From the NCBI GenBank assembly GCA_963722075.1, contig CAVRJM010000001.1, forward strand, positions 320,001-384,000: a stretch of 64,000 nt of DNA. The letters run 5' to 3'. The notes beneath the pieces were generated by a model. That model had not been told where the DNA came from. It ran no database searches and saw only the letters and a program-made list of their open reading frames with translations. Each line of letters opens with the position of its first letter. Position 1 is the stretch's first letter. The stretch is from Candidatus Babeliales bacterium (GTDB taxonomy: Bacteria; Babelota; Babeliae; Babelales; JANWKD01). This document shows positions 38,467-59,574 of this stretch, piece by piece. The position numbers were made by a program, and so were the translations under genes.

Positions 38467-38508
38467 CGTCGTTGCGATCCAGCCTTCGCCCAAGGGGCTT
38501 CGGCGGAC
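38467..38508. repeat. Truncated family-1 arm fused to a family-2 hairpin
   Basis: CGTCGTTGCGA then TCCAGCCTTCGCCCAAGGGGCTTCGGCGGAC. Confidence 0.7.
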
Positions 38509-40016
38509 TAAAACGAAGTTCCGACCTTTGCCCATACATGGCCCATTTTAAATGATCTATTAGTGCCAGAAAATTCAATACCACCACCAAGACCAACAAA
38601 TGGTTGGCTCCAGCACCAATCCCATAAATAGCCGATATGAACAAAGAACCCATGAGAGAATGCGCCTGGATGTGCCGCAGATTCAAAATTAAGGTCACTA
38701 TTAGAAATGAATACCGGGGATGCATCAAGAATAGAAGCATTTGTACCATCAATTTGAGTTAAACTGGCTGTTGTATTGGTGCCAGCACCAGCAGTACCAC
38801 TTAATCCAGCAATACCAAAGGTATTCGCAGGAATTTGGCCAATTACATCAATATGGTCTCGCGTGCGGCCCCATAAATTGTAGCCAGCATCAAGGATGAA
38901 ATTGCAACGTAAATATTCAAGCATAAAAACAAGATCACCATGAGCTCTATTTTTAGTCTTAATTGGCAAGGTTAAAATATTCGGGCCACGAACAATTTCT
39001 CCAGCGTACGCGCCAGCATTAAATCGTTTAAATAATAGATATCTGCTGCCGATACCATTGTTTTTAAGATCAAAAGTTCGCATTTGTCTTGATTTGAGCA
39101 TGGTATAGATATTGCCATTAATGAATCCGGTTAAAAACTCATCACAACCATTTTCCCATAATAAGAAATTACCTAATATTCCTGCTCCCACCTCAAAATA
39201 ATGCCCATTACCCACAATAGGTTCAAAAAAGAAAACGCCATTTGGTCGATTGCCGGTGGGTATAATAGTGCGTACATTAACGCTAAAATAATTACATTCA
39301 TCGTTAAGAAATATACAACCTAAAGCACATTCAAAATCAGCAAAAGATGATTTTTTTCGTTTACCATCTACCCGAGCAAATTGGAGTGGTTGCTTTACAT
39401 CAAAAAAGGTTGCTTGGCCGTCCCATGCAGTTATCATAGAATTAAATGGTGCAGGGGTATCAGTAGGATTTCCTAATTCATTTGCTAGAATTGCCGTTCC
39501 AGAAGTGCTGACTGTTTCTTTAAAATCGATTGACCATTGAGTGCGTGCATAAGGAAGATGCGCGGCCAGGTAAAACGTATAACATCCAATATCAAAACCG
39601 TAGAACCCATTAATATCTATGAGTTCATTTTGTACTGAGGGGCGTGCAGTGATGCCACTATTAAAATTATCGTTTACCAAGAAATTCTGTCCAAAAATAT
39701 CAATGCCAGGGCCTGCTGCCGTTCCTGTTTGCATGGTGTCAGTATTATTAAAGAAAAGATATTTACCAATATCATGTTTATTAAATGATTTTGAATACTC
39801 GGCGGTGCTCCAGAGTACGCCATTTGAACAATCGTCATAGCCCCAGGTAATTAAGTAACCTACACCAGCACTCTCACGTGCTTTGTTTGAACCAATAGAA
39901 CGTCCATGAAAAAAGGTACGGCCAAACACATCGCGATTATCGTTAAACTGATTATCGGCAACAAGATAAATAGGAATGAAGAGAGTGACGAAAATAATGG
40001 TACGTAGATACTTCAT
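38508..40016 (-). CDS. Putative outer-membrane beta-barrel protein (paralog of 43178-44758)
   Basis: Signal peptide, amphipathic beta strands, C-terminal Phe (KVGTSF). Confidence 0.7.
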   Translation of the reverse strand: MKYLRTIIFVTLFIPIYLVADNQFNDNRDVFGRTFFHGRSIGSNKARESAGVGYLITWGYDDCSNGVLWSTAEYSKSFNKHDIGKYLFFNNTDTMQTGTAAGPGIDIFGQNFLVNDNFNSGITARPSVQNELIDINGFYGFDIGCYTFYLAAHLPYARTQWSIDFKETVSTSGTAILANELGNPTDTPAPFNSMITAWDGQATFFDVKQPLQFARVDGKRKKSSFADFECALGCIFLNDECNYFSVNVRTIIPTGNRPNGVFFFEPIVGNGHYFEVGAGILGNFLLWENGCDEFLTGFINGNIYTMLKSRQMRTFDLKNNGIGSRYLLFKRFNAGAYAGEIVRGPNILTLPIKTKNRAHGDLVFMLEYLRCNFILDAGYNLWGRTRDHIDVIGQIPANTFGIAGLSGTAGAGTNTTASLTQIDGTNASILDASPVFISNSDLNFESAAHPGAFSHGFFVHIGYLWDWCWSQPFVGLGGGIEFSGTNRSFKMGHVWAKVGTSF

Positions 40017-40230
40017 ACAGGCCTCTTTTTTACAAGGAAATTTTTATGATGGTTTTAAGGTAATATTTTTTTTGAAATCAATCAATTAATTCTTTTATAG
40101 AAAAATATGCCTATAGATTAGTGTTTTATAAAAATAAAATATTTTCAGGGTGAATAAAAACCATTGAAAAACGGCCTTTAACTGGAGTATTCTAATAATA
40201 TAGTCAGATTAAAGACTATAAAAAGGGGAA

Positions 40231-41307
40231 ATGGTAATGAAGCTAAAAAAAATACTTTTTATGCTATTATGCAGTACTGCAGGGTTATCTTATGCACAAT
40301 GTGATAAAAAAACGTTTGACCAATTACTTGCTAGAATTAAAACGGGTTATATTTATGATTTATATGGGTTTATCGATACAGCAAAAGTACGTACCTTTGC
40401 TGAAGATAACCCCTTTAAATCGATTCCCTCAGTGGCACAATTAAATAGCTGGAATTCATTAATATCATGCACTCATAAATATATCACTGAGCAAATTGCA
40501 TTAAAAAAGGCGCCAACTATCTATAAAACGTATCTTAAAGAATTGGAATCAACCACTAAAGATATTCTTGCACTCATTAAGTTATTAAATGCTCTTTATA
40601 GTAAAAATGTTATTGTCAGCCAAAATATTAAACTTAAAACAGTTGAATCATATCGGCCATTATCAGCAGCAGATAAAAAAGAACTTGAACTTCTAATAAA
40701 AAAAATAGATTCATATAAAAATATAATAAATTCAATCTTTATTTTATCGCTGGAAGAAATAGTGACGGCAGCTGGTTACCCTGCTGCATGGAAAAATGAA
40801 GTTTCCTCTTCTTTAGATGAAATTTTTAATGATTTTCCTTATTTTTTCGATACGTATCAAGAGGCAAAAAAGAAATTTAAAAATATGAGCCCGGAAGAAT
40901 TAGTTTATTTTTTACGTATTTCAAATTTGATAAAAGCACCCTATAAAGAAAATCAAAGAGAATATGAATTTGAGTTACAGAAATTAGCAACCGCACTTTT
41001 TAATAAATTAGAAAAATTTGATTACCGCGTTTCTGATGAGGCTAAAAAGATTCAAGAGCGTATAGATAATGCTTGGATTGCCAGTAGAGAAGACAAACAA
41101 CGATTGGCGTATTTGAAAAAGCTTAGTGCCGACACTCATGAAATTATGAACGCATTATTGCTCGTGTTCCCATTATCTCCGCGCTATATGGATATGTTAG
41201 CACGCACAAAAGATGCTACTTCATTGCTTATTTTTGCCGAATCAGCGGCATTAACTTCAGAACTGCAAGCTTTAAAAAGAAATGCTTTATTATTAAAAGG
41301 AAAATAG
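40231..41307 (+). CDS. Secreted helical hypothetical protein (paralog 1 of 3)
   Basis: Signal peptide, CD...W...C motif shared with the next two ORFs. Confidence 0.7.
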   Translation: MVMKLKKILFMLLCSTAGLSYAQCDKKTFDQLLARIKTGYIYDLYGFIDTAKVRTFAEDNPFKSIPSVAQLNSWNSLISCTHKYITEQIALKKAPTIYKTYLKELESTTKDILALIKLLNALYSKNVIVSQNIKLKTVESYRPLSAADKKELELLIKKIDSYKNIINSIFILSLEEIVTAAGYPAAWKNEVSSSLDEIFNDFPYFFDTYQEAKKKFKNMSPEELVYFLRISNLIKAPYKENQREYEFELQKLATALFNKLEKFDYRVSDEAKKIQERIDNAWIASREDKQRLAYLKKLSADTHEIMNALLLVFPLSPRYMDMLARTKDATSLLIFAESAALTSELQALKRNALLLKGK

Positions 41308-41309
41308 TT

Positions 41310-42206
41310 ATGAAATTAAAAATATATAATACACTTTTTTTACTAACAGCCATGAGCTGTAATTCGCTCTTAAATGCTACCTGCGATGAGGTGACTAAAA
41401 AAATGGTGATTACTGATATCCAAAAGCCGCAAACAGTATATCACAAAATTCAAAATCCTCTTAGTGGTGATTTAAAAAATCCAAAATTATTAGATGCATT
41501 TAAAGCATGGATCAATTACACCGATTGCGCAGAATCACTCATTAATAATCCTGCATATGCTGACATGAAAGTGGCAGTACAGCAAGCTAAATTATATGCT
41601 TTGGGATCAATTATCAAATTACAAACGAATCGTACCAATGCCATAGATCTTGAAAATATTAAACAATTAATAAAAGTAATGGATTTGTTATTTATTACGG
41701 CCTTGCGTGAAATTCATCGAGAAGTACCGACCCCTTCTTCTTGGAAAAAAGATGTTTTAGCTTCAACACTTGAAGATTTCTTTGTTGGGCATGAACAGTT
41801 TTTTAAAAATTATGAAGCTACAAAAAAACAATTTGCACAATATAAAGGCGTTTTTGACACACAGCGAATAGTAGATTTTGTACGAAATCAGCATTTTATC
41901 AAAAAAGGTCCACAGGAACAAAATAGTATTAATTTTCTTGTTGATGCATTAGAAAAAACAATAATTAAGTTAGAAGAGAATAGTAAAAAAGCGTGGTTTG
42001 GCAAAGGGGATATGCAACGAAAAATTGGGGATAGCAAAGAAATAATTGCGGCCTTAATTAAACAATATCCATTTACTGAGACCTCACAGATGTATCAAAA
42101 AATATCATTTTCCCAAAATATAGCATTGTTAATTTTACTTGCTGAAGCAGGTTCTTTATTAGGAATTTTAAAACGAATTGAAAACTATCTAGAAAAAAAT
42201 AAATAA
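41310..42206 (+). CDS. Secreted helical hypothetical protein (paralog 2 of 3)
   Basis: Signal peptide, CD, W..YTDCA, P..W...V motifs. Confidence 0.7.
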   Translation: MKLKIYNTLFLLTAMSCNSLLNATCDEVTKKMVITDIQKPQTVYHKIQNPLSGDLKNPKLLDAFKAWINYTDCAESLINNPAYADMKVAVQQAKLYALGSIIKLQTNRTNAIDLENIKQLIKVMDLLFITALREIHREVPTPSSWKKDVLASTLEDFFVGHEQFFKNYEATKKQFAQYKGVFDTQRIVDFVRNQHFIKKGPQEQNSINFLVDALEKTIIKLEENSKKAWFGKGDMQRKIGDSKEIIAALIKQYPFTETSQMYQKISFSQNIALLILLAEAGSLLGILKRIENYLEKNK

Positions 42207-42223
42207 TAATTAAAGGAGAGAGA

Positions 42224-43096
42224 ATGATGAAAAAGCTTATAATACTTAGTTGCCTGCTGCCATTCTGTGCGCAAGCAATGGTGTGTGATTATCAAACACG
42301 CCAACAAATTAACAAAGATAAAAAAGCACCATACCAGATATATGAAAATATTCAGAAGTTATTTATACCCGTTTTAAATGCAAATATGAAAAATTATTAC
42401 TATTTTACCGAAGCATGGAAAAGCTGGGACGCTTATACTGATTGTGCTCATGAATTAATAACGAATTCGGAATTCAAAGAAGATAAAGATATCTTAGTGT
42501 TTGCTAAATATAGAATTAAAGATACCGTCGAAAAAATCAATGGAGTACCTGACCAAACAAGATTAAGAAAAATGTTAAAAGAATTGGCAGATATTTATAG
42601 CAATGCATTGCAGGTTATTAATGAAGAAGTAGATACGCCGTTAGACTGGGAAAGCGCTGTTTTAGCACAGTCTGCAGAAGATATTTTCCCCCATTACAAA
42701 ATAAGCTTGTTATTGCCCTATGAAGAATTAAAGAAAAAAAGTGCATTTGATAATAAAAAAATTCTTGATTTTGTGAAGAATCTTGAAAGAATCGCATCAG
42801 GAGAAGATGAACAACAAGCTATTAATAATTTTGCCGACAAAATAGATAAACTTATTTACCGTTTAGAAGCAGATAAAAAAAGAACCTGGTATAGTAAAAG
42901 AGAACTGCAGAAAGAAATTAATGACTTAGAAGAAATTTTTGATGCACTTAATGAACGTTATATTATTGAAACGAGTCTTATGCGCGAAAAAATTTCCTTA
43001 TCAACAGATTTAGATGCGCTTATAATTTTATCCGAAACAAAAAATCTTATAACTATTGGGCAAAAGGTAAAGAATTTTCTAGATTCACGTAAGTAA
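42224..43096 (+). CDS. Secreted helical hypothetical protein (paralog 3 of 3)
   Basis: AAGGAG RBS, signal peptide, CD, W..YTDCA, P..W...V motifs. Confidence 0.7.
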   Translation: MMKKLIILSCLLPFCAQAMVCDYQTRQQINKDKKAPYQIYENIQKLFIPVLNANMKNYYYFTEAWKSWDAYTDCAHELITNSEFKEDKDILVFAKYRIKDTVEKINGVPDQTRLRKMLKELADIYSNALQVINEEVDTPLDWESAVLAQSAEDIFPHYKISLLLPYEELKKKSAFDNKKILDFVKNLERIASGEDEQQAINNFADKIDKLIYRLEADKKRTWYSKRELQKEINDLEEIFDALNERYIIETSLMREKISLSTDLDALIILSETKNLITIGQKVKNFLDSRK

Positions 43097-43119
43097 ATGA
43101 ATCCTTATAGCAAAAAGAC

Positions 43120-43149
43120 AAAAAGCGCGGAAAATTTTCCGCGCTTTTT
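43120..43149. terminator. Bidirectional rho-independent terminator
   Basis: AAAAAGCGCGGAAAA-TTTTCCGCGCTTTTT palindrome between convergent genes. Confidence 0.85.
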
Positions 43150-43177
43150 CGTTTAAATTATATCTACGTTGAATGCT

Positions 43178-44758
43178 TTATGAGAATGCGAAGCCGCCTT
43201 TAATCCAAATTCCCCATTGGTCAAGTGCAAAATTATGATCGCCTGAGAATTCTACTTCGCCGCCTAACCCTAAAAATGGGGTATAATCACAATTTTCCCA
43301 CGCATAGCTGGCATGAGCAAAGAATTTATGTGAAATAGCTCGCGGATGCGCTGCTGAATCAATAAATAGTTGGCTATTATTAATGAAGACAGCCGTGCTA
43401 TCAAATGGGCCACCGGTTCCATTAATGTGAGCAGTACTTTGTGTCTGAAGAGCTTCAGGGCCCGCAGAGAGTGTTTGTCCTTTTAACCCATAGGTATTTG
43501 GTTGAATCATTTCGATATTGCTAATTTTATCCTCGCTACGAGTCCAGAGATTGTAACCAGTATCAAGCGTAAAACCACAACGATAATAATCAAAAAGCAA
43601 TGCAGCTTCAATATGATAAGAATTACGGACTTTACATTGCAATGCTAACACATTGGGACCAAATAAAATTTCAGACAGCGCTGTTGGGGTGGCACCACCG
43701 GTAAATTTTTTAATTAATAATCTACTGCTACCAATATTTTGCGTGCCATCGGCATTAGCTAAATCAAATATTCTGCGCTGACGGCCTTTGAGCACGGTAT
43801 AAATATCTGCTTCTGCCCATACGCTAAATGCTGAATCGCAGCAGTTATTCCAGAATTCATAGTGTGTAGAAAAGCCAGCACCTACTTCATAATGCTTACC
43901 ATTACCAGCAACTGGTTCAAAAAGGAACACGGCATTCGGACGATTACTGGAAGGGAAAACAACACGGAAATCAGCGCCTAAATGGTAACATTCATGGCAA
44001 AGGAAATTATATCCAAGCGCTGCTTCAATATCACCAAGTCGTGTTTTAGTTTGTTTGCCGCTTGCTTCACTTGAACCGCTCAGTGCATCAGATGTATCAA
44101 CGCGACCAAATTGTAAAACTTGTTTTAAAAGGGGAAAATCTATGGTATCTAATGTTTGCCCATTATATGCTGTTAAAATACTGCCAATGGGTGAAGGGAG
44201 GGCGCTCGTATTTCCCAATTCATTTGCTGCGATTGTAGTACCTGAACTGGTAATGTTTTCATCAAAATTAACGGTCCAACGAGTCCATACTAATGGTGCA
44301 TGGATATCTAAATAAAGACCACAAACCCATTCATCTAAATTAAGTCTAAATTGAATATCTAAAAGCGCATTTTCTACCCGCGGAAGTGCGGTGAGGGTTC
44401 CGTTAAAGTTATCATTAAGGAAAAAATTTTCTGCAAAGACATCAACGCCCGTACCGCCTGCAGCGCCAAATGTCATCATGTTGGTACCGTTATAGAAAAG
44501 GTATTTTCCTATTTCATCGCGATCAAATGAACGCGTATACTCAGGGGTGAAGGACAGAAATCCATTGAGACAATCTATGTCGCAGGGTACAAGAAATTCT
44601 GTTGTTCCTACTAAACGTCTTGCTAGATTAGACCATTGTGGTCGTTGGCTGAAAAATGTATGGCCAAATGTTTTACTAGATGGATCATCAAGTGCATATA
44701 TAAATCCAAAAGAGGTACATAAAAAGAGAAATAAAAATTTTTTAATAGTTGGTTTCAT
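43178..44758 (-). CDS. Putative outer-membrane beta-barrel protein (paralog of 38508-40016)
   Basis: Signal peptide; shared motifs FG.TFF, IGKYLF, NDNFN, FEP..GNG, GYNLW.R, AAHP, GLGG..EFSG. Confidence 0.7.
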   Translation of the reverse strand: MKPTIKKFLFLFLCTSFGFIYALDDPSSKTFGHTFFSQRPQWSNLARRLVGTTEFLVPCDIDCLNGFLSFTPEYTRSFDRDEIGKYLFYNGTNMMTFGAAGGTGVDVFAENFFLNDNFNGTLTALPRVENALLDIQFRLNLDEWVCGLYLDIHAPLVWTRWTVNFDENITSSGTTIAANELGNTSALPSPIGSILTAYNGQTLDTIDFPLLKQVLQFGRVDTSDALSGSSEASGKQTKTRLGDIEAALGYNFLCHECYHLGADFRVVFPSSNRPNAVFLFEPVAGNGKHYEVGAGFSTHYEFWNNCCDSAFSVWAEADIYTVLKGRQRRIFDLANADGTQNIGSSRLLIKKFTGGATPTALSEILFGPNVLALQCKVRNSYHIEAALLFDYYRCGFTLDTGYNLWTRSEDKISNIEMIQPNTYGLKGQTLSAGPEALQTQSTAHINGTGGPFDSTAVFINNSQLFIDSAAHPRAISHKFFAHASYAWENCDYTPFLGLGGEVEFSGDHNFALDQWGIWIKGGFAFS

Positions 44759-44918
44759 CTACAAAACTCCTTATTGTTTTTAAAGCTGGGCATACCATCG
44801 AATGTTTTCATTGCATTTGATCACACGCTACTGAATTTCCAATGATTCGTCAATATTGAAAGAGGTATAATTTATGGTATGGTTGAGTTTTGTAAAAACA
44901 TTATAGATTTACGCAAAC

Positions 44919-45065
44919 CTGGATTCTTAGGCTTCGCTCAGAATGACATACGACACGGTCATCCTGAGGAACTTGCGTCCGACTTCGCCATGGCTACGCC
45001 GGATTCCTCAATAGCAAAGTGCGTGTCCGGCGGAGTTTTAACGGAGACGGAACGTGAGGATACAG
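44919..45065. repeat. Family-1 pair with a family-2 dimer nested in the right arm
   Basis: CTGGATTCTTAGGCTTCGCTCAGAATGAC; GTCATCCTGAG[...44977-45051 insert...]CGTGAGGATACAG. Confidence 0.8.
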
Positions 45066-45104
45066 TAAATAAATTAACATTCTAATTTTGATTTTTTGAT
45101 TTCT

Positions 45105-45869
45105 ATGTACACATATCTAATAATTTTTTTTGCAATTTTTTTAGAAAGTCTTCCTATAAGTAGTTCTGGGCATGTTCTGTTATTGCAAAAATTGTTATCA
45201 AAAAAAAATATTGCAGCTGATATGAATCCTGATGTTTTACTATTTTTGAATGGGTTTACGGTTATGGTGTTAGTGCTTTTTTTCTATAATCGTTGGAAGC
45301 TCCTCGTTTGGGCGTTACTACGAAATAAGGCGATAATACAAAAAATCTTTTTGTTAGGAGCTTTGACTGATGGAATCACGGTTGGATTCTATTTTTTGTA
45401 TGCTAAAAAATTGTGTCTATTCCCTGTATGGATTGGATTTTTAATTACCGCATTGGTATTAGCGAGTTTGCGTTTTTGTCCAATTGTAATAAAAGGAAGT
45501 TGGAATTATAAAAATGCGATTTTATTAGGAATAGTACAATCATTAGCGTTGTTGCCGGGTATTTCACGCTTTGGTACAACGTTTGCAGCAAGTAGATGGT
45601 GTGGAATGAATAACCGCAAGTCATTTGAACTATCTTTTTTACTGGAATTTCCTATTATTGTTGGGGCATATTTGCTAGGAACATATCAGTTGTATAAAAA
45701 AAATCAGTTATGGTACGTGATTAATTCTGGCACATTAATGATTAGTATGACAGCAATTATAGCTGCATTAATTGGATTATGGATCATGCGCGTTATAATT
45801 TCTTATAATTATATATGGCTATTTTCGATTTATCTGATAATGATTTCATTTTTGTGTATACCACTATAA
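45105..45869 (+). CDS. uppP: Undecaprenyl-diphosphate phosphatase
   Basis: E.LPISSSGH and Q.LALLPGISR.G.T motifs; polytopic membrane protein. Confidence 0.9.
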   Translation: MYTYLIIFFAIFLESLPISSSGHVLLLQKLLSKKNIAADMNPDVLLFLNGFTVMVLVLFFYNRWKLLVWALLRNKAIIQKIFLLGALTDGITVGFYFLYAKKLCLFPVWIGFLITALVLASLRFCPIVIKGSWNYKNAILLGIVQSLALLPGISRFGTTFAASRWCGMNNRKSFELSFLLEFPIIVGAYLLGTYQLYKKNQLWYVINSGTLMISMTAIIAALIGLWIMRVIISYNYIWLFSIYLIMISFLCIPL

Positions 45870-45882
45870 GTAGGAATATAAT

Positions 45883-48105: not shown

Positions 48106-48237
48106 ATTAAAATAAAATTTTTTTATTTTTAAAAAACTCTTTTTTTTATACTTGACAAATGTTCAAAAAGCAGACATTTTTTCCAACGTATTAGTACAGC
48201 ATTTTTAGTAAATTTTAACATTAAAAGGCGGAGAAAT

Positions 48238-49641: not shown

Positions 49642-49645
49642 GGAT

Positions 49646-50536
49646 ATGTACCATAAATCAGTGCTTGTTAATGAAGTTATTGAATACATAAAACCCCAAG
49701 CGCATGGGGTATATTTAGATGTTACGTTTGGAGGCGGTGGGCATACGCGGGCATTGTTAACCGCTGAGCCCACTTGCTCAGTAATAGCGCTTGATTGGGA
49801 TGCGCAGGCATTGGAAAAGAATGGCTATGCCCTTCAGGAAGAATTTCCCGGAAGGCTTACCTTGTTATGGGGCAATTTTGCGCAAGTAGATAAGAAATTA
49901 AAGAAGGAAGGTTTGGGCCCTGTCGATGGTGTGATTGCTGATTTTGGTACTTCACAATATCAACTGCTTGAACGGTCTGGCTTTTCATTTAATGTTGATA
50001 GTCCTCTTGATATGCGTATGTCGCCAGCTCATCAAAAAATAACAGCGCAAGAAGTGGTAAATAAGGCAACTGAAAAAAAGCTTTATGATATTTTTAAGGA
50101 GCTCGGGCAAGAACAATATGCTAGAAAAGCAGCACGGGCAATTGTAGAAGCACGCGCAAAATATTCGATAAAAACGACTCGTCAATTAGCCCATATTATT
50201 GAAGGCGTAATACCTCGTAAGAAAAAAAATATACATCCAGCTACCCAAATATTTCAAGGCTTACGTATTTATGTTAATAAGGAGCTAGAAAATATTCAGT
50301 CCTTTTTAAATGCAAGTTTACGTGTTTTAAAGCCGGGTGGAAGGCTTCTTTGTATTAGTTTTCATTCCTTAGAAGATCGCTTGGTTAAACAGTTCTTTAA
50401 AAACCATACTAATACACCGCCATTGGTGGAAATAGTAACTGATCACATAATTGTTGCCACCCAAGAAGAACTTAAAGAAAATCCTTCTGCTCGTTCAGCA
50501 AAATTGCGTGTTGCGCAATTAAAGGAAAATGTATGA
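49646..50536 (+). CDS. rsmH: 16S rRNA m4C1402 methyltransferase
   Basis: H.SVL, D.TFGGGGH, PLDMRM, FQGLRI.VN.EL, SFHSLEDR, ARSAKLR. Confidence 0.97.
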   Translation: MYHKSVLVNEVIEYIKPQAHGVYLDVTFGGGGHTRALLTAEPTCSVIALDWDAQALEKNGYALQEEFPGRLTLLWGNFAQVDKKLKKEGLGPVDGVIADFGTSQYQLLERSGFSFNVDSPLDMRMSPAHQKITAQEVVNKATEKKLYDIFKELGQEQYARKAARAIVEARAKYSIKTTRQLAHIIEGVIPRKKKNIHPATQIFQGLRIYVNKELENIQSFLNASLRVLKPGGRLLCISFHSLEDRLVKQFFKNHTNTPPLVEIVTDHIIVATQEELKENPSARSAKLRVAQLKENV

Positions 50537-50543
50537 AAATAGT

Positions 50544-50572
50544 TTGACAAATAAGGGGTGCATGGGTAAATT
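50544..50572 (+). promoter_or_regulatory. Putative sigma70 promoter of spoVG/tRNA-Gln
   Basis: TTGACA-N17-TAAATT. Confidence 0.5.
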
Positions 50573-50651
50573 AATGGTGTATTGTTTGATAGTTGTTATA
50601 TCAAGCCAATAAAATGAGATAGTAAAAAGATTATTTTTAAGGGCACAAGAA

Positions 50652-50942
50652 ATGAAAATAACAGAGGTAAAAGTATATCCAGCGAAGGAAAACGGTAGGC
50701 TTAAAGCTTACGCAACGATAATCTTTGATAATGATTTTATTGTGCGTGATCTGAAAGTAATTGAAGGGGAAAAAGGACTCTTTGTATCAATGCCTTCCCG
50801 TCGCCGCAAAGATGGCTCATTTAGAGACATTGTCCATCCGCTCAACGCTGATACTCGCAAGATGATTGAAGAATCTATTATTGGTGAGTATAATAAAGCG
50901 GTTAAAATGGGTTTTAGCACCTCCGCTGAATCTGAAGAATAA
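50652..50942 (+). CDS. spoVG: SpoVG family nucleic-acid-binding protein
   Basis: MKITEV, LKA.A.I.FD..F.V, GLFVSMPSR, FRDI.HP.N. Confidence 0.95.
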   Translation: MKITEVKVYPAKENGRLKAYATIIFDNDFIVRDLKVIEGEKGLFVSMPSRRRKDGSFRDIVHPLNADTRKMIEESIIGEYNKAVKMGFSTSAESEE

Positions 50943-50975
50943 AAAGTAGTAATATAAAGTTATTTGAATTATTGT

Positions 50976-51050
50976 TGGGGCGTCGCCAAGTGGTAAGGCA
51001 CCAGGTTTTGGTCCTGGCATTCGGAGGTTCGAATCCTTCCGCCCCAGCCA
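50976..51050 (+). tRNA. tRNA-Gln(TTG)
   Basis: TGGGGCG acceptor, TTTTGGT anticodon loop, GGTTCGAATCC, CCA. Confidence 0.97.
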
Positions 51051-51188
51051 TCCTTCGCTCTTACAGAGCTACGGCTGGGCAAGCCAGTTGTTTAAATGAA
51101 ATATACATAATAGAAAAGTGAAGAGCGAAGGCTGTCACGCCCTAGCTTATGCTTCAAAGTTATACCCGAGAAAAAAGCGACGGCGGAC
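51051..51188. repeat. Family-2 palindromic repeat cluster between tRNA-Gln and the GIY-YIG gene
   Basis: CCTTCGCTCTTACAGAGCTACGGCTGG ... AAGAGCGAAGG ... GCGACGGCGGAC. Confidence 0.7.
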
Positions 51189-51243
51189 TATAACTCGAAT
51201 TTCCTCTATTTTAAATAATAGTTATATTATCTGATTTCTTAAA

Positions 51244-51483
51244 ATGTATTATGTCTATATATTAAATTCAGTTATTGATAAAAATCGTATGTATGTCGGT
51301 TGTACAATTGATCTAGAAAATAGACTAAACGAACACAATGCTGGTGAATGTATACATACGAACAAGTACAAGCCATGGAAATTGTGGACTTACATATATT
51401 TTGAGAATAAAGAAAAGGCAATCGCTTTTGAACGTTACTTAAAATCTGGTTCTGGTAGATCTTTTTCAAAAAGGCATTTTTAA
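51244..51483 (+). CDS. Small stand-alone GIY-YIG nuclease
   Basis: YYVYIL.S, YVG.T.DL..RL.EHN, T..Y.PW.L, A..FERYLKSG.GR. Confidence 0.92.
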   Translation: MYYVYILNSVIDKNRMYVGCTIDLENRLNEHNAGECIHTNKYKPWKLWTYIYFENKEKAIAFERYLKSGSGRSFSKRHF

Positions 51484-51485
51484 CT

Positions 51486-52118
51486 ATGCAATCAAACATC
51501 TTGCTCCTTGCTTCAAAATCACTCCAACGCCGAACGGCACTAGAACAAGCATGCATCCCTTTTAGAATTATCGAACAAAATGCTGATGAAAGCATTTGTG
51601 ATTATACGCTTCCATTCGGATCCCTTCTAGAATCAATTGCTATTCATAAAATGAATCATATTGTTATGCATGCTAATCTTGAGCATCCTGTTCAATTTGT
51701 TTTGACCGTGGATACCATGGTGCAAGATGGTGCGGGGAAAATATATGGTAAACCCTCATCTAAAGAAGTGGCACGATCATATATTAAAGCATTGCGTGAT
51801 AATCCGGGCCAGGTAGGCACTGCCTTTTGTCTTGATAAAAAAGAGTATGGAGATAATAGGTGGCATACAGTTGATCGCATTACCAAATTTGTGAGCGCCG
51901 GTTATTCGCTCGACATTCCCAATCATTGGATCGATACCTATTTTGATCAAGTGCCCGAATATCTTTCTATTGCCGGTGGACTTACTATCGAAGAATATGG
52001 AGCTCAATTTTTAAAAACCATTGACGGCTCTTATGGATGCGCAATAGGGCTTCCGCTTTATGAATTACGAGAATCATTAGATTTAATGGGATTTTTTACA
52101 TTGAAAAATTCAATCTGA
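51486..52118 (+). CDS. maf: Maf family nucleoside triphosphate pyrophosphatase (copy 1)
   Basis: LLASKS..RR, DE, DT.V, GKP, G.Y...IGLP. Confidence 0.88.
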   Translation: MQSNILLLASKSLQRRTALEQACIPFRIIEQNADESICDYTLPFGSLLESIAIHKMNHIVMHANLEHPVQFVLTVDTMVQDGAGKIYGKPSSKEVARSYIKALRDNPGQVGTAFCLDKKEYGDNRWHTVDRITKFVSAGYSLDIPNHWIDTYFDQVPEYLSIAGGLTIEEYGAQFLKTIDGSYGCAIGLPLYELRESLDLMGFFTLKNSI

Positions 52119-52197
52119 AATTAAAGGACTTGCTTTATGTTACGATTTATGATAACATAGAAGGATAGTGTTATAGGGATTATAAAATAGGGATTTT

Positions 52198-52974
52198 ATG
52201 AAAAATAGTAGCGTTTTAATACTTGCGTTCTTATTATATGGCGTTATGCAGGCTATGGAAGCACCAAAAGGTAGCGCATGCCGCATGACTTCATTGGTAA
52301 AGATATCTGCATTGGAGAATATTATAGGCCGATTTTTAGGGCAAGTCTCACCTTCGCCTTCTTTAGAAGATCTATTCAAAGTTTTAGATATTAAATGCAA
52401 TTATAAAGATCATGATCCATTTGGCTTTGTAGCTACGAGTCAACCATCTTTATATATTCTATTAAATGTTCTTATCGATCAAAAAATAGCGGGGAAATTG
52501 CCACATGTTTCAATCGATACTATTAAAGAATTAAACAATGTTTTTAAAAAGAAAACTACTGAATCATTGCGCCATATTGATAATCAAATTGAACGGTTAA
52601 AAAAAGGGGAGGCATCCTTTAAAGAAGCGCAATCACAAGGATTAGTTATTTCTGAAGAAGCGCCTCACATTGATCCATTGAGCAGCGATACTTTACGGAT
52701 TATTGAGCGCGTTGTTAGAAGGGGAGCCCCTTTTAGATTCAGAGAGTTTCTTAAGGAATTTAAGGTAGATTGTAATAAGTTTTTACCCAATGATTTTGAA
52801 TTGCCTGCGGTTTATTTGTTGATGAAAAATTTATTGTTAGGTAAAACATCACGCTATACCTATAAGAAATTAAAGAGCATTTCTATTGATAAAGTTATAG
52901 AATTAAATAATTATCTCAAAGTAATTGCGGTATATTATCAGCATGAATTAGATGATAAAATAAAAAGTTTATGA
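52198..52974 (+). CDS. Secreted hypothetical protein with an internally duplicated domain
   Basis: Signal peptide then AME; two copies of CN...P..Y.L...SID...ELNN..K. Confidence 0.7.
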   Translation: MKNSSVLILAFLLYGVMQAMEAPKGSACRMTSLVKISALENIIGRFLGQVSPSPSLEDLFKVLDIKCNYKDHDPFGFVATSQPSLYILLNVLIDQKIAGKLPHVSIDTIKELNNVFKKKTTESLRHIDNQIERLKKGEASFKEAQSQGLVISEEAPHIDPLSSDTLRIIERVVRRGAPFRFREFLKEFKVDCNKFLPNDFELPAVYLLMKNLLLGKTSRYTYKKLKSISIDKVIELNNYLKVIAVYYQHELDDKIKSL

Positions 52975-52997
52975 TAATTGCCATTAAAGGTTTTGGA

Positions 52998-53741
52998 ATG
53001 CTTATACATATTATTTCGTTAATTTGTTCCTTTTTTATTATTACGCTTTTTCCTTCATGCAAAGAAATGGAAAAATCAAAAAAACCAGGAACCATAATAT
53101 TTTTACATGGGATTTCATCGGCAGGAAAAACGTCAGTTGCAAAAAAATTACAAGATGTGTTACCAGAGTATTATAATTATGCAGATTTAGATGCATTTAC
53201 CAGTATGACACCAAAACGGCTGGTAAATTTTGATCCAAATGCACAGCCATCTGTTGAAGCGGCTGAACAAGGCATTGTTATTGAACCGATCACGTATGAT
53301 GGTCAGCAGGTAATGGTGGTAAAAACAGGTTCCTATTCGCAAAAGGGCGGTATGTTATTACCTAAATTATATAAGTTGTATGTAGAAAATGGCTTTAATT
53401 TAATTATTGAATTTGCATTTTCAGGTATTGATCAACAGTTACAAGAAAACTATTTAAAAGAATATCTCAAAGAGTTGCATTCATTTCGTGTTTATTTTAT
53501 TAATCTAACGGTTTCTCCTGAGGTCGCTTCACAACGCGAATTACAGCGTGGCGGTTTTAAAGGATTATCAGCGGGACAACGTTTATTTATGCTCAAAGAA
53601 TTTACTGAACCACAAACCTTTGATTTAGAAATTGATACATCAAATCTTACGCCTGAGCAAATTGCACAACAAATTGATGCGTTTATGCAATCTCATCCAC
53701 AGCCAGAAGCATTTAATAAATTATATAAGAAATATTTTTAA
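52998..53741 (+). CDS. Chloramphenicol phosphotransferase-like P-loop kinase
   Basis: IIFLHG.SSAGKT, RE..RG, DLEIDTS..TPE..A; hydrophobic N-terminus. Confidence 0.8.
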   Translation: MLIHIISLICSFFIITLFPSCKEMEKSKKPGTIIFLHGISSAGKTSVAKKLQDVLPEYYNYADLDAFTSMTPKRLVNFDPNAQPSVEAAEQGIVIEPITYDGQQVMVVKTGSYSQKGGMLLPKLYKLYVENGFNLIIEFAFSGIDQQLQENYLKEYLKELHSFRVYFINLTVSPEVASQRELQRGGFKGLSAGQRLFMLKEFTEPQTFDLEIDTSNLTPEQIAQQIDAFMQSHPQPEAFNKLYKKYF

Positions 53742-53767
53742 TGAATAAAAGAAGAGGTTTTTTCTTT

Positions 53768-54314
53768 ATGAATAGCACTATTCAAGTAGTTTTATTTTTT
53801 AGTTTTATAACTTTTGGGGCTACTCAAATTGTATCGATGGAAAATAAACCAGTTTCTTCTAATACACATCCTATTAACTGGGCAATTAATTTGTCATAGG
53901 ATACGATCGAACATAGTTGGGGAACTTGGAATGATTTTTTTCGTGAACAAATTAATCCATTACTAAATCGTAACCTATTTGATAAAGCCATAAAAAACGG
54001 ATCGTACCAAACAATGTCAGCCTATGAATTTTTAGCATTAAATGTTGAAAATCAACGTCTTAATAAATATAAAAATGCAAAAAATGCGCAAGAAGCATAC
54101 CCCGAAAATGACCGTCCTCGTGGAAAAAAAGATATCGATAGCGTTAATTTTTTGAGAACACGTGCCTGTGTAAGTCCGATTGTGGTTTGCAATAGTAACT
54201 GATAAAGAAGGTCTAATACATTATATTAAACTTGATGATGTTCATCGGCTAATAGCGGCAGCAATAAAAAAATCTCCCATTAAAGTCTTTTTTATTGATT
54301 TAGAAATTAAATAG
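53768..54314 (+). pseudogene. Disrupted secreted protein with a ParB/Srx-like C-terminal motif
   Basis: Signal peptide ORF with in-frame TAG at 53897, continuing in frame through the 54014 ORF, then a frameshift near 54185 into ...IKLDDVHRLIAA...IK*. Confidence 0.65.
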
Positions 54315-54371
54315 TAACTATATTTCCAATTCCATAGCCAACAGCATTTGATCAGTTATATAAGAAATATA

Positions 54372-55628
54372 TCAGTATTCAAAATTATTTATTATAGCCC
54401 ATGTATCTATGGCTTCTAAAATAAGCTTGCTTTGTTCATCATCTTTATTAACTGCTATAGATATAACTTTTTTAATGATTTCCGGATTGAGTGTTTTAGG
54501 ATTTGCATATTGTAGAAGTAGCTTTACTATTGGTAAATTATCATGATGTGCAGCCAAGCTAAAGGCAGAACTATTCAATTTATCAATTACATTAACATTT
54601 GCGCCGTGTTTTAAAAATAATTGAACAAGTTTATATATAAGTGGTGAAGGTTTATTTCTACATAATGAAATAAGTGGTGTACTTCCTGATGAATCGATTC
54701 CATTAATATTTGCACCACGTTCTAATAAAAAAAAGATTAATTTTATATATTTTTTATTTAAATTATTTACTGAATCAACCATAATAACATTTAATAAAGG
54801 ACCGTTGATAGAATAAGTGGCAACGGGGTCCTGGATTGATTCGTTAGGGCTCAGGCCAAGTTTAATAATTTTTTTTAATTTTTTATAAGCATCGTTAGCA
54901 TCGTTATTCGCAGCTTGAGGGTGATTTTTTATATTGTAATTATAAGTAAAAAAAGGAAGTAGAAGCTTAGAAATATAAGGTTTAAAAATAGCTGCTGAGG
55001 GATTTGTGAATTTTAATAATATTGTAAATAATTTTGGTTTTATTGTATATATATATGCATGTAATAAATAAAGACCATATTCTTTATTATTTAAAACAAC
55101 TAATAATTTTTGTAACTCACCTGCATTATTTTGCTTAATGGAATTATCTACATTTTTTAAGGTTTTCGCCGTATTACCTAACATATAAATAAATAATGGA
55201 TTAACGTTTATTTCTACCCAATCTTCAACTGAGCCATAAAGAACTGGCTGATATTCCCTTAGATAATTTAATGCATTATCTGTAATGAAAATGCCGTTAG
55301 ATATAGAATCAAACCGACGAGCAATTTCAATTGATAAGTGATCTAAAAAGTCACTATCTTGTAATACTACATATAAATTTGTATTAGTCATTGAAAGTCT
55401 AGATAATTCTTTAATAAATTGAATTAATTGATCTTTGGAATTAATAGTTTTTGGCAATAAATTCAAGACTATTTTATAAATAAGTTCAAAGGGTAATGTT
55501 CCTAATGAAGGTTTTTCTGGAATAGGGGCAAGTTGTATAGTTTCGACCGATTCTTCGGGTTCTTCCATTGGGATAGAAAAAGTGAAGAAAGAAATAATAA
55601 AAATACCTAGAAACAGTTTATTTTTCAT
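54372..55628 (-). CDS. Secreted F-box-like plus ankyrin repeat protein
   Basis: Signal peptide, LGTLPFELIYKI F-box-like motif, LLERGANIN..D..G.TPL and LKHGANVN ankyrins. Confidence 0.8.
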   Translation of the reverse strand: MKNKLFLGIFIISFFTFSIPMEEPEESVETIQLAPIPEKPSLGTLPFELIYKIVLNLLPKTINSKDQLIQFIKELSRLSMTNTNLYVVLQDSDFLDHLSIEIARRFDSISNGIFITDNALNYLREYQPVLYGSVEDWVEINVNPLFIYMLGNTAKTLKNVDNSIKQNNAGELQKLLVVLNNKEYGLYLLHAYIYTIKPKLFTILLKFTNPSAAIFKPYISKLLLPFFTYNYNIKNHPQAANNDANDAYKKLKKIIKLGLSPNESIQDPVATYSINGPLLNVIMVDSVNNLNKKYIKLIFFLLERGANINGIDSSGSTPLISLCRNKPSPLIYKLVQLFLKHGANVNVIDKLNSSAFSLAAHHDNLPIVKLLLQYANPKTLNPEIIKKVISIAVNKDDEQSKLILEAIDTWAIINNFEY

Positions 55629-55759
55629 GGTTTCTCCATTTTAATCAAAAATCTGTATATTCTAATTGTAATAATTTATATAGAATAAGTCAATAAATTA
55701 TGTATTTAAATCGGGACAAAGCATTTAAAATATCGAATTCAAAAGAGTTTAATAAAATG

Positions 55760-55838
55760 CTGGATTGCTTCGACAAGCTCGCAACGACGTTTTTTGCTTT
55801 CGGCTATCGTCGTCCCGAGCGAAGCGTGGGGATCCAGG
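55760..55838. repeat. Family-1 heterodimer (divergent orientation)
   Basis: CTGGATTGCTTCGACAAGCTCGCAACGACG...CGTCGTCCCGAGCGAAGCGTGGGGATCCAGG. Confidence 0.88.
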
Positions 55839-55915
55839 CCAAATTAATATGATTTAATTTTTTTAGCTTAAATACTTATCATTTGATGCGTTTGTGCTGA
55901 TAGTAATGACCTCTA

Positions 55916-56842
55916 TTATAATTCTAATGCCATCTTGATAATGGCATGATCAGAAAAATGCTTAATATGTTTAATATCCTGATTAACATGTCTGAGTAAA
56001 TTATTGGGATTTTCAGGGGAATAAATCAGATTTTTTACCGTGAACTGCTTACTATAAAAAATAAAATCATTAAGATTAAATCCTTGTTGCGCGCCGGTTG
56101 AGGTTGGTACTAATGGAAGCATATCAGCATTGCTTTTCATTTCATGCACATAGTGCTGTAACTTATTATATTTTTTTTTATTTAACTTATCAGTGCCTTG
56201 CAATACGGAGTAATTAAAATCTCCGCATATAATCCATGGTAGATTTTTTGGCGCGCGATCAATTGTATCTTTAATAATAGAAAAATGATCTGCATGATCC
56301 TCATTGAGCATAAAAGGTATATGCGTATTGATAATGCCTATTGCTTTCTTTTTTTTAGTTTGCAAATGCGCAACCATCATTTTTTTATTAGGAGTAAACA
56401 CCATAAATTCGTAGGAAAGAATAGTAAATTTATGCTTATTAATGAGTGTGAGTACGCCGTCTTTTTGTGCAATGCTATCAATAATATAATAATAATCATT
56501 GGGTGAATATGCATCTAATAAGGTGTTATTAAACCTCTTATATTGTACTTCTCTATTATTATTAAAATAATCGTATTTAGTTTCCTTATGGCCATTTACC
56601 ATAACAACTTCTTGTTCAAATTGTTTACGTAATTCCCCTGGGTTATAGGGCCATTCTTGAAAACAAAGGATATCACACCCATTAAGGATATGGCCCGGTC
56701 GTAATGCTTGTTTAAAAAGAGAACATCTTTTTTTAATAGCAATGGGATACTGATCTACATATTGAATGTAATAAGGCTCATAAAGCACATTACAAGTGGC
56801 AGCGGTTATGGTTGAGGCTGATGATCGTTTCATATGGATCAT
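55916..56842 (-). CDS. Endonuclease/exonuclease/phosphatase (EEP) family protein
   Basis: TCNVL, DILCFQE, NTH, CGDFN, DFIFY, SDH. Confidence 0.88.
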   Translation of the reverse strand: MIHMKRSSASTITAATCNVLYEPYYIQYVDQYPIAIKKRCSLFKQALRPGHILNGCDILCFQEWPYNPGELRKQFEQEVVMVNGHKETKYDYFNNNREVQYKRFNNTLLDAYSPNDYYYIIDSIAQKDGVLTLINKHKFTILSYEFMVFTPNKKMMVAHLQTKKKKAIGIINTHIPFMLNEDHADHFSIIKDTIDRAPKNLPWIICGDFNYSVLQGTDKLNKKKYNKLQHYVHEMKSNADMLPLVPTSTGAQQGFNLNDFIFYSKQFTVKNLIYSPENPNNLLRHVNQDIKHIKHFSDHAIIKMALEL

Positions 56843-56906
56843 TTCTTAAATAATTGTTATTATTATATCATATAAAGATTTATAAAACTTTTTCTATATT
56901 TTTATT

Positions 56907-57524
56907 ATGAATAATATTCTTTTATTGGCATCTCAATCATATTCGCGTCGTCAATTACTCAGTCAAGCAGCTATCCCTTTTGTATTGTTAGAACAATCAG
57001 CTGATGAAAATGCCTGCGATTGGAATATGCCACTTACTCAGTTAGTTACTTCAATCGCTAAGCATAAAATGGAACAGGTTATTTTACCGCGTCACACAGA
57101 TAGTAAACCGATTTTTGTGTTGACGGCTGATACCTTAACGCAAGATCTATCAGGAACGATTTTGGGTAAACCAACATCGCGATCCCATGCACTTGAAATG
57201 CTACGCGCAGTGCGCGCAGGGGCTCGTATTGCTACGGCATTTTGCTTAGATAAAAAAATTTATCGCTTTGATACCTGGCAGACCCAAGAACGAATTATAA
57301 TGGTAGTAGAATCGAGTTGTATATTTAATGTGCCTGAGCAATGGCTTGAACAATATCTTTATCATGTACCCGCATTAAGTTGTTCTGCAGCCATGTATAT
57401 TGAAGGGTATGGGGCGCAATTTTTAAAATCCGTAACGGGTTCTTATAGTACCATTATTGGTTTACCTATATGTGAGGTGCGGCAAGCCTTAGAAAAAATG
57501 GGATTTTTTAGCGAGAGTATTTAA
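56907..57524 (+). CDS. maf: Maf family nucleoside triphosphate pyrophosphatase (copy 2)
   Basis: LLASQS..RR.LL, DE, ADT, LGKP, GSYSTIIGLP. Confidence 0.88.
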   Translation: MNNILLLASQSYSRRQLLSQAAIPFVLLEQSADENACDWNMPLTQLVTSIAKHKMEQVILPRHTDSKPIFVLTADTLTQDLSGTILGKPTSRSHALEMLRAVRAGARIATAFCLDKKIYRFDTWQTQERIIMVVESSCIFNVPEQWLEQYLYHVPALSCSAAMYIEGYGAQFLKSVTGSYSTIIGLPICEVRQALEKMGFFSESI

Positions 57525-57932
57525 TAGACTGCTTATGGATTGAGAGTTATAGCAAATTAATGTACAGCAAAATCCCAACGTTAAAAAAGCGCTATTATTA
57601 AATAAATGTTTTTTGGCTTGCAAAAATGGTTTAATTTTTGCTGCTTCATGTTGCTGCCTAAGTGATTCATTACCTTCTTCTATTAATTTATTTTCTTCTT
57701 TTATATCTGCTTGTTGTTGTTTACTTCCTTGTAATGGTTTTAAGCTTGAAAGTATGAGTGGCTTATTTTTATCAGCAGCCTCTTTATAAATTGTATACGA
57801 TATAATAGTTCTATAAAGTTGAATAGCCGTTAAGCCAGCGCACAACGTGGTGCCTATGGTAGAAAACGTCAACGGCACTTCAGAATACATGGTATTGTAA
57901 AATATGAACAGTATAATTAAGCACTTTTTCAT
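57489..57932 (-). CDS. Hypothetical membrane protein
   Basis: Signal peptide and two hydrophobic segments; start overlaps stop of the upstream EEP gene. Confidence 0.6.
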   Translation of the reverse strand: MKKCLIILFIFYNTMYSEVPLTFSTIGTTLCAGLTAIQLYRTIISYTIYKEAADKNKPLILSSLKPLQGSKQQQADIKEENKLIEEGNESLRQQHEAAKIKPFLQAKKHLFNNSAFLTLGFCCTLICYNSQSISSLLNTLAKKSHFF

Positions 57933-59002
57933 AGCTGAAATTCTATTCGTATCACTGCATGATCCGAAAAATAATCATTTTCATTAGGATCTTGATTTTC
58001 ATGATGAATTAATTGACCAGCAGTTGGAAATAATGACGCATTAAGCACTTTCATCGTGTTGCTAAAAAATACATAATCGTCATGCTCTGGATAATTATGA
58101 GCGCCCCATGCCGTTGCAGGGAGATAATATCCGCTTTTTTCCTGTTGTCCCAGTAATAAAACCACATTGTTAAAATGAGGAAAGCGGTTTGCTAACTGGT
58201 TAAAAAGTGTTTGATCTAAATAATAATGATATTGAAGATCTAAAATATCATAATTAAAATCTCCACAGACAATCCAATAAGTAACGCTACTATTATCAGC
58301 GATTATCTTCTTAATAGTATTTAAGCCATGTAAATTTGCTTGTGCATTATACGGTAGATGTGCATTTATAACTCCCATAGTATGCGGATGATTTTTTGGT
58401 TGTATAATAGTAACCAAGATTCTTTTTGATATATCAAGCGTAATGGTTTGTGATGATAATAATTGAAATTTATTTTTATTTATTACGGTAAGTACCGTGT
58501 CATACGGGGCTAAGTTATCATAAATATATTCGTATGCCTGAGTAGGATATGCATCAGCAAGATCTTCAATAAATTTTAAATAAGAGGCATTGATAGAATT
58601 AAAATAATTATTCTTAGTTATAGCTTGCTTATTAATATAAATAACATCATTCTTATTTTGGCGTAATTCACCTACACCGTATGGCCATTCTTGAAAACAA
58701 AGAATATCAACGTTTTGCAAAGCATGATTATTTTGTAAACTTTTTCTAAAGGCGGCACGGCGATTTTGTATATCTATTAATACATTATTTTTTTTTAGAT
58801 ATTGAACGTAAAATGGTTCGTACAACATGTTGCAGGTAGTGAGCGTAAACTTAAATGGGATTGTTGCGAGCGTGGTAAGGGGCGTGCTGAGAGCGGTGTG
58901 TAATTGTTGTAATGAAGTTCGTAAGTGATTTAATTCAGTTTCTAAGGCCCCCAGATAATTGAATAGAAATAAGTGGACGAGCAGTAAAAAGTTTTTATTC
59001 AT
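57929..59002 (-). CDS. Secreted EEP family protein (paralog of 55916-56842)
   Basis: Signal peptide, TCNML, DILCFQEWPY, NAH, CGDFN, SDH. Confidence 0.88.
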   Translation of the reverse strand: MNKNFLLLVHLFLFNYLGALETELNHLRTSLQQLHTALSTPLTTLATIPFKFTLTTCNMLYEPFYVQYLKKNNVLIDIQNRRAAFRKSLQNNHALQNVDILCFQEWPYGVGELRQNKNDVIYINKQAITKNNYFNSINASYLKFIEDLADAYPTQAYEYIYDNLAPYDTVLTVINKNKFQLLSSQTITLDISKRILVTIIQPKNHPHTMGVINAHLPYNAQANLHGLNTIKKIIADNSSVTYWIVCGDFNYDILDLQYHYYLDQTLFNQLANRFPHFNNVVLLLGQQEKSGYYLPATAWGAHNYPEHDDYVFFSNTMKVLNASLFPTAGQLIHHENQDPNENDYFSDHAVIRIEFQL

Positions 59003-59065
59003 TATTTTTTCCTTTTTTTACTTAAAATACCGAAGTATAACCTTGAAAGCAATATTTCTGCACTT

Positions 59066-59256
59066 GTCATTCCGAGCGCGTCCGACCTCGCCACGGGGCT
59101 CCGCCGGATTCCGTCAATGATAGTGTGCCTGTCCGGCGAAGTTGTTTACACCGCCATAGCTTTTAGCGACGGCCGGATTAACGTAGATGGATGGGAATCC
59201 ATTAATAAGATTTTTCATTTATAAATGGATCACCACGGCTAACGCCTCGTGATGAC
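59066..59256. repeat. Three-level nested repeat (family-1 containing family-2 containing family-2)
   Basis: GTCATTCCGAGCGC[GTCCGACC...[CCGCCATAGCTTTTAGCGACGGCCGGA]...GATGGA]TGGGAATCCA ... TGGATCACCACGGCTAACGCCTCGTGATGAC. Confidence 0.8.
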
Positions 59257-59557: not shown

Positions 59558-59574
59558 TGGTAAATAGGGTGCAA

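Follow-up and report, generated by a model that had tools for sequence, protein, structure and literature searches.

A 30-nt hairpin nested in CGTC-tagged repeats, in itself and in genes of a Candidatus Babeliales genome

Composite repeats and their two families

The DNA analysed here is a stretch of 64,000 nt from a Candidatus Babeliales bacterium (G000:C1:320001-384000, the window in what follows; the genome has 1.47 Mb and 35% GC), and it contains two families of short hairpin repeats, family 1 and family 2, of which the second is found inside the first and inside itself. A protein of the window has its nearest named relative in a Candidatus Dependentiae MAG (78%), and the phylum is accordingly taken as Dependentiae. 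A first-pass annotation had marked three composite sites (38467-38508, 44958-45065 and 59066-59201), and all of them are present in the sequence as described. The two host arms have different stems, as it had stated (ATCCT/AGGAT at 44958, ATTCC/GGAAT at 59066), and an inverted pair of family-2 units interrupts each of them. The fusion at 38467-38508 does join a family-1 head to a family-2 unit, but this is a single minus-strand unit (38478-38507) with the remaining host absent, and the stop codon of the open reading frame (ORF) at 38508-40016 abuts it. The further hairpin reported inside the 59 kb insert indeed lies in the loop of the right unit, but its extent is 59144-59177 (34 nt) rather than 59151-59177, including a 5' tag, GTTTAC(A), which had been omitted.

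The dimer of ~75 bp that had been taken as the family-2 unit turned out not to be the basic one, which is a hairpin monomer of ~30 nt. When the 44958 host is rebuilt with a 30-nt monomer at 45022-45051, it lies 2 edits from an empty element present in 3 copies, against 5 edits under the earlier parse, and thus the "dimer" at this site is probably two separate insertions. In the parse with the better rebuild, the host's own inner hairpin forms part of the "spacer" ahead of the right unit.

On its G.A-rich strand the family-2 unit reads tag-TCCGNC-GNA-NNN-loop-NNN-GNA-GNC(T)GGA, with a tag (CNTG), an outer stem, a GNA/GNA internal loop, an inner stem of 3 bp and a GGA end. Its 3' end is always GGA, or rarely GGG (132 such ends in the genome), and its 5' tag differs with the class of junction (CATG, CTGYG, CTTG or GTTTAC). 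Among 100 distinct sequences of the phylum (phylum counts here refer to 201 genomes of the host's phylum, the relatives being labelled G001, G002, G003, G004 etc.), the inner stem covaries, with 99 and 94 of 100 Watson-Crick pairs against 58 and 50 after shuffling, and the middle base of GNA is unpaired (35 against 38 shuffled). Sheared G.A pairs can close internal loops, and the GNA/GNA loop would fit such a closure. In the folding models used, which have Watson-Crick pairs and DNA parameters and leave G.A pairs aside, single-strand folds of family-2 units are weak.

For family 1, empty units were searched with the pattern YGTC, 5-bp stem, GA, inner hairpin, GWR, stem, CCA(G/T), and 216 were found genome-wide against 0.3 in shuffled DNA. 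C or T precedes GTC in 212 of the 216, giving a terminal CGTC/TGTC tag, and the stems begin with AT or GT. The tails are CCAG (173), CCAT (37), CCAA (4) and CTAG (2), counts that are not independent of the search, as its pattern itself demanded a C-C/T-A/T tail. There are 66 head-to-head doublets among 303 family-1 heads counted, head-to-head being the sole arrangement counted. Within one element the two arms often have the same sequence, down to the inserts they carry, and therefore family-1 arms are homogenised.

Junctions, targets and insertions inside genes

A genome-wide catalogue with the junctions mapped on the host fold, which had been proposed beforehand, gave five classes in family 1 and one self site. 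The 132 family-2 3' ends, assigned by regular expressions with a few misassigned, comprise 18 of class A (joined after the family-1 GA), 15 of class B (at the stem base), 11 of class C (in the apical loop), 17 D-left and 25 D-right (on the 3' side of the family-1 internal loop, on either strand), 15 of class E (in the loop of another family-2 unit) and 31 others, which include tRNA-abutting units. Within family 1, the apical loop thus has one class, the G.A internal loop three and the stem base one. The earlier claim that junctions are limited to the hairpin loop is not borne out as stated, since the apical loop has just one of five family-1 classes. The unit also enters ordinary genes.

Self-insertion (class E) occurs at one site in 17 hosts of differing sequence. 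Of 19 D composites, 7 contain it, and every host type (long, short and TTGC) is represented both by D composites that have it and by ones that lack it; the tree of the D-composite cores is short and poorly resolved, and only its label table and its best-supported sister pairs were used. There is one E-type junction in G004 and none in G001-G003, so this class is not strictly genome-specific. When tag plus unit are taken out, the joined flanks exactly match strings present at other places in the genome, for instance over 36 nt, the longest span (C1:720704 and 711338), or over 28 nt in 11 copies (C1:104910). For class E, 13 of the 17 sites have such an empty match, of 6+6 nt or more, and 4 have none. 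Of the doublets, 13 are filled in a single arm, 1 is filled in both and 41 are empty in both, and one doublet lineage with a common spacer has empty, D-filled and C+B-filled members. Six junction classes, the presence or absence of E within each host type and the varied host families elsewhere bear out the idea that family 2 is a separately mobile insert which enters family 1 and itself repeatedly. A possible origin of the GTTTAC tag by capture from a family-1 variant, GA-GTTTAC-GAA, was rejected, with 0 such donor junctions in the genome.

The tagged family-2 monomer is present in 63 of the 201 phylum genomes (control 0), in 14 viral stretches and in at least 121 metagenome stretches, a lower bound of which 80 are itemised. 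Reversed-pattern controls gave 0 matches in all 41 and in all 201 genomes. After removal of duplicates and of loci with less than 100 nt of flank, 177 target sites remained (91 from the phylum, 73 metagenomic and 13 viral); they include dimer and cassette units, for which the tag may not be the true left boundary. The target motif is CGN^AG at 42 of these sites (0.9 expected), GN^AG at 52 (2.4) and G(N)^WG at 87 (7.7). Sorted with a crude pattern, the hosts are family 2 at 29 sites, family 1 at 10 and a third hairpin family at 21. As the first-pass annotation had noted, target-site duplications are absent, for the longest word common to left and right equals that of the shuffled control bar 7 sites (5-7 nt), and these lie in tandem repeats as judged by eye. 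In the relative G002, several monomers lie within hairpins (L066-L072), which we take to resemble IS200/IS605 ends. Elsewhere (L094, G030:C2:114050-115300) a GIY-YIG-like ORF lies between arms whose inner hairpin, within another repeat, is a family-2 unit, in tandem arrays.

Genes are entered as well. A family-2 monomer in an ABC ATPase is exactly a 10-residue gap against solved homologues, and therefore the monomer moves without a repeat host. In many bacteria such copies lie in frame within genes, and they occur in three reading frames. At G000:C1:1087520-1087591 (L348:1221-1292), a 72-nt C+B family-2 pair with a family-1-derived spacer and no outer arms lies in frame in a gene that was named mannose-1-phosphate guanylyltransferase-like from sequence reading, where it replaces a variable loop of 10-14 residues in relatives. 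Family 2 thereby accounts for the peptides of 10 residues that recur among predicted proteins from uncultured bacteria. Another locus (L133, G106:C3:98479) has a family-2 unit nested in a family-2 unit, in frame in a P-type ATPase-like ORF, for which a search of close relatives in the 201 genomes gave 1 match, itself. Solo units at C1:209815 and 270332 end six bases ahead of the ATG of two apparently paralogous genes.

The features of the window are collected in Table 1. An Rfam scan of the window matched three tRNAs alone and no Rfam family at the repeats, and two of its ORFs, 38508-40016 (502 aa, ending at the family-2 unit) and 43178-44758 (526 aa), have no Pfam match. Outside the window, the genome has a long coding repeat array with Cys-Cys containing units (G000:C1:69000-83500) and a near-identical multi-copy IS-like element of ~1.15 kb (G000:C1:143335-144483, with at least 6 further copies, at 242545, 291844, 864151, 1133250, 1259969 and 1412279, and a partial one at 1292031).

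Table 1. Repeat units, composites and cassette genes in the window (window coordinates)
Feature	Position	Strand	Remark
Family-1 (CGTC-REP/SRM-like) head	38468..38477	+	Remainder of host absent
Family-2 unit, class A (after host GA)	38478..38507	-	Abuts stop of ORF 38508-40016
Empty family-1 unit	44919..44947	-	Adjoins 44958 composite
Class-D composite, long family-1 host (ATCCT stem)	44958..45065	+	Two family-2 units
Left family-2 unit of 44958 composite	44978..45003	-	3' GGA joined to host CGC on minus strand
Right family-2 unit of 44958 composite	45022..45051	+	Full 30-nt monomer with CGTG tag and GGA end, at host G^AC
tRNA-Gln with encoded CCA	50976..51050	+	Clade-B cassette anchor; ortholog called tRNA-Gln by aragorn
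Family-2-type unit	51048..51083	-	3' end overlaps tRNA-Gln CCA
Second family-2-type unit of clade-B cassette	51132..51187	+	Long loop, GGA end
79-aa stand-alone GIY-YIG nuclease ORF (clade B, P0001)	51244..51483	+	Candidate family-2 mobiliser
Class-D+E composite, short family-1 host (ATTCC stem)	59066..59202	+	Two family-2 units and nested third
Left family-2 unit of 59 kb composite	59081..59108	-	
Right family-2 unit of 59 kb composite	59128..59191	+	CCTG tag; loop interrupted
Nested class-E family-2 unit	59144..59177	+	34 nt, GTTTAC tag, inserted after GAA-GTT
Empty family-1 partner arm	59225..59256	-	Head-to-head doublet at 59 kb
Empty family-1 doublet (example)	13807..13884		Others 12167-12393, 17456-17685, 24192-24406, 55760-55839

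Two nuclease clades and a possible mechanism

Each family is accompanied by its own stand-alone GIY-YIG gene. Inverted family-1 pairs enclose a 96-aa ORF (clade A) at C1:1398408, 140112 and 1361610. Among 28 clade-A loci of the phylum, 23 have family 1 on at least one side and 15 on both sides, none has a tRNA, and family 2 is found at 8 of 28 against 10 of 52 in the control. The clade-A protein is 50% identical over 88 aa to an N. gonorrhoeae ORF flanked by NTS repeats, and its Y7, Y18 and E64 align with Y6, Y17 and E64 of that ORF, i.e. the GIY/YIG tyrosines and the metal glutamate. Family 1 has the layout of a CGTC-tagged REP, with an SsnA-like GIY-YIG gene flanked by inverted pairs. Because the published degenerate search string for SRM matches 0 of the 216 family-1 units, family 1 is an internal-loop variant of SRM, with the same mode of working and outside the literal string.

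A second GIY-YIG ORF, of 79 aa (clade B), is at window 51244-51483 and also at C1:1122058, and pairs of family-2 units lie between it and the 3' end of a tRNA. For the best 29 clade-B homologues in the phylum, a family-2-like hairpin lies no more than 350 nt upstream or 200 nt downstream in 29 of 29 loci, against 6 of 50 control windows, and a tRNA lies upstream in 21. This layout of tRNA, family 2 and clade B recurs in other phyla, and, of the 63 genomes that have the tagged monomer, 58 carry clade B against 65 of the 138 others, a tally in which kin are not independent. Clade B has no BLASTP match to the Neisseria ORF; one tree branch with local support of 84 splits it from clade A, and the two share 33% identity over 55 aa. 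As judged from these sequences, clade B is distinct from the SsnA clade. An NCBIfam search gave no specific family for either nuclease. On one contig of run X1, from a relative, 213 other bases replace the clade-B ORF between the tRNA-Gln flank and the downstream gene (window 51061-51484), and therefore the cassette is variable. The genome also has a third tRNA-abutting hairpin family (CCAGTCATTTCC..GAAATGCCTGGCAGGCCAG), at G000:C1:283791, 328292 (window 8292), 502835, 587399, 749260, 972373 and 1112999, one copy of which lies ahead of a GIY-YIG ORF (C1:1112723) that contains an internal TGA.

Taken together, we favour with moderate confidence a reading in which numerous insertions, always with the same 3' end and without target-site duplication, brought the ~30-nt family-2 hairpin into family 1, into itself and into genes, the hairpin being probably mobilised as single-stranded DNA by the tRNA-linked clade-B GIY-YIG, distinct from the SsnA-like nuclease of family 1. 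Hairpins with G.A mismatches would extrude on single-stranded DNA at the replication fork, and the clade-B enzyme, likely the mobiliser of family 2, would cut 3-5 nt 5' of the family-2 GTC, where the 5' boundary of the unit lies (cf. SsnA, 5 nt 5' of the GTC of NTS). Motifs containing GNA, which are abundant in REP-type hairpins, would be the preferred acceptor sites, and this preference may thus produce the Russian-doll nesting. GIY-YIG enzymes are not known to have ligase activity; the host polymerase and ligase would complete the joint, and the making of the GGA end and the sealing are steps that we infer. Filled family-1 arms would later be copied and homogenised as units, multiplying some junction classes. 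At the level of the repeats, the nests arise from repeated insertion of the 30-nt hairpin into hairpins rich in G.A motifs, followed by copying of composites, and part of the family-2 copy number stems from the amplification of ready-made composites.

A broader proposal is offered tentatively: family 2 and the tRNA-anchored 79-aa GIY-YIG may be a pan-bacterial micro-transposon system with a chemistry unrelated to DDE, HUH and recombinase enzymes, which would place a 30-nt single-stranded hairpin into cGN^Ag sites of G.A motifs without target-site duplication, parasitise the sister Ssn repeats and seed 10-residue inserts in proteins.

Several results weigh against the favoured reading. What ties clade B to family 2 is position. 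The contigs of four runs (window 40000-59900) gave no empty allele at the two window composites, at a depth (~1-5) too low for this absence to carry weight; the orthologous intergenic regions in G001 and G004 are too diverged or rearranged to yield one. Since tags are constant per class and G001 and G003 share the long-host dimer, each of several classes may go back to a single old event that was then multiplied by copying. As for structure targeting, which the first-pass annotation had deduced, the preference is best seen as the sequence motif CGN^AG across genomes, from which the junctions of this genome (e.g. GC^TC, GA^TC, TT^TT) mostly deviate. In the Watson-Crick folding test, 91 of 177 rebuilt targets have at least 6 pairs against 150 of 354 flank controls (p 0.05; p 0.09 for minimum free energy), a marginal, non-significant result from a model that ignores G.A pairs and from controls that are hairpin-rich. 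The crude pattern matched 117 of the 177 sites to no repeat, several of which are family-1-like by eye. The in-frame cases in a dCTP deaminase and in MiaA/aminotransferase are not clean, and the alignment of the former to its solved homologue is ambiguous.

Part of this evidence would also agree with a process without a dedicated family-2 enzyme, in which polymerase template switching and gene conversion act among G.A hairpins where forks stall or the SsnA-like family-1 enzyme makes nicks, and a few founding fusions are shuffled among hosts. Arms homogenised together with their inserts (L030, L029, L034, L053; C1:1008100/1008328), the tags constant per class, the chimeric left junctions of class D and the CTTGTC that the family-1 inner hairpin GCTTGTC has in common with the family-2 tag all point this way. 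However, we find it rather improbable in view of the clean 30-nt insert in the ABC ATPase, a gene without homology to the unit, the single fixed 3' end in all classes, the strong motif in unrelated hosts, the monomers in many genomes without a clade-A match and the tight link to clade B.

A HUH transposase of the IS200/IS605 or RAYT type could also move family 2, as peel-and-paste gives motif-directed insertion without target-site duplication; precise insertion of this kind based on single-stranded hairpins is the known signature of IS200/IS605, the genome has one Y1_Tnp gene, and the G002 units described above sit in end hairpins that resemble these elements. Yet this sole Y1_Tnp gene (C1:156495) is flanked by neither family, family 2 flanks GIY-YIG genes, and GTAG in family 2 is internal and variable, never a terminal tag, which places the unit outside the GTAG REP and REPIN-RAYT definitions. 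We regard such a mover as unlikely.

It is very unlikely that the nests, rather than being mobile DNA, are RNA elements under selection (terminators or stability hairpins) that duplication built up: they are mostly intergenic and the cassettes come after tRNA genes, but the units occur in both orientations and, in frame, in three reading frames, fold weakly without G.A pairs (with DNA parameters only) and have no Rfam family in the window, and SsnA ignores RNA. An origin of all composites from one ancestral fusion amplified by family 1, for which the long-host dimer common to G001 and G003 and the near-copies of one composite at C1:900196 and C3:11828 speak, holds only within classes and is refuted as a complete account: there are six junction classes, on both strands, self-insertion took place at one site in 17 different hosts, host and insert occur in four combinations, and family 2 has also entered further hairpin families, tRNA flanks and genes.

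Comparison with known systems

SsnA cuts single-stranded DNA a few bases 5' of the NTS hairpin and leaves RNA alone, and it frees a 20-nt fragment from NTS75, i.e. it cuts 5 nt 5' of GTC; the mobility of Ssn repeats is hypothesised there only, not shown (Chenal et al. 2025, PMC11893778). Ssn/SRM resemble family 1 in the YGTC tag, the hairpin, the C tail and the inverted pairs round a stand-alone GIY-YIG, whereas family 1 has a GA/GWR internal loop. The covered text and 12 of 14 supplement files describe no tRNA-linked clade or nesting, with 0 text matches for "tRNA" and "nested" (PMC11893778). CGTC-tagged REPs, for which the consulted portion of the paper reports no enzyme (Di Nocera, De Gregorio, Rocco 2013, PMC3733652), are likewise similar to family 1 in tag, AT stem start and CCA tail; they are mostly head-to-head dimers, an arrangement that also occurs among the family-1 units. 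REPs inside other palindromes were noted in three species, and the text of that paper, with which family 2 was compared rather than with its Figures 1-2, contains no multi-level nesting and no junction map (PMC3733652). Family 2 has a TGTC-like tag, but its stem starts with CG and it ends in GGA without a CCA tail, which sets it outside the CGTC-REPs, and without a target-site duplication it differs from classical MITEs too.

The Nostoc SDRs of Elhai et al. 2008 are reportedly cyanobacterial and different from family 2 in sequence, and are not known to have a partner enzyme. They are alike in being very small modules with precise insertion at a fixed position of a short motif; SDR5 of Nostoc was inserted between bases 3 and 4 of HIP1 (PMC4390886). 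RPE is similar to family 2 as palindromic DNA that lies in frame in unrelated genes, but it has ~150 bp against 30 nt (10 codons) for family 2, which nests in itself and is linked to a nuclease (PMC10969869). REPIN/RAYT shares non-autonomous hairpins, the lack of target-site duplication and mobilisation in trans, but there the doublet is the unit, singlets are relics and the enzyme is of the HUH type, (Bertels and Rainey 2011, PMC3116915), whereas in family 2 it is the singlet that inserts, with a GIY-YIG as its partner. A literature search, which left out most subscription journals and set the family beside Nostoc SDRs by description, not by sequence, gave no account of family 2 or of its nesting.

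How palindromes of the REP, RPE and SDR types (20-40 nt) spread when no transposase is known for them has long been an open question. With exact ends, a measurable target motif and matching GIY-YIG clades, it becomes reducible to a simple oligonucleotide assay, and a tRNA-linked nuclease of its own, if it helps the hairpin to insert, would go some way to explain the dispersal of tiny palindromes that have no transposase; a second family of site-specific nucleases for single-stranded DNA, if true, would be a useful tool in itself. In conclusion, the locus contributes a junction map, a target motif and, for each of the two repeat families, a nuclease clade that goes with it, and family 2 works like the SDR, RPE and REP micro-elements, beside an Ssn-like but distinct nuclease.

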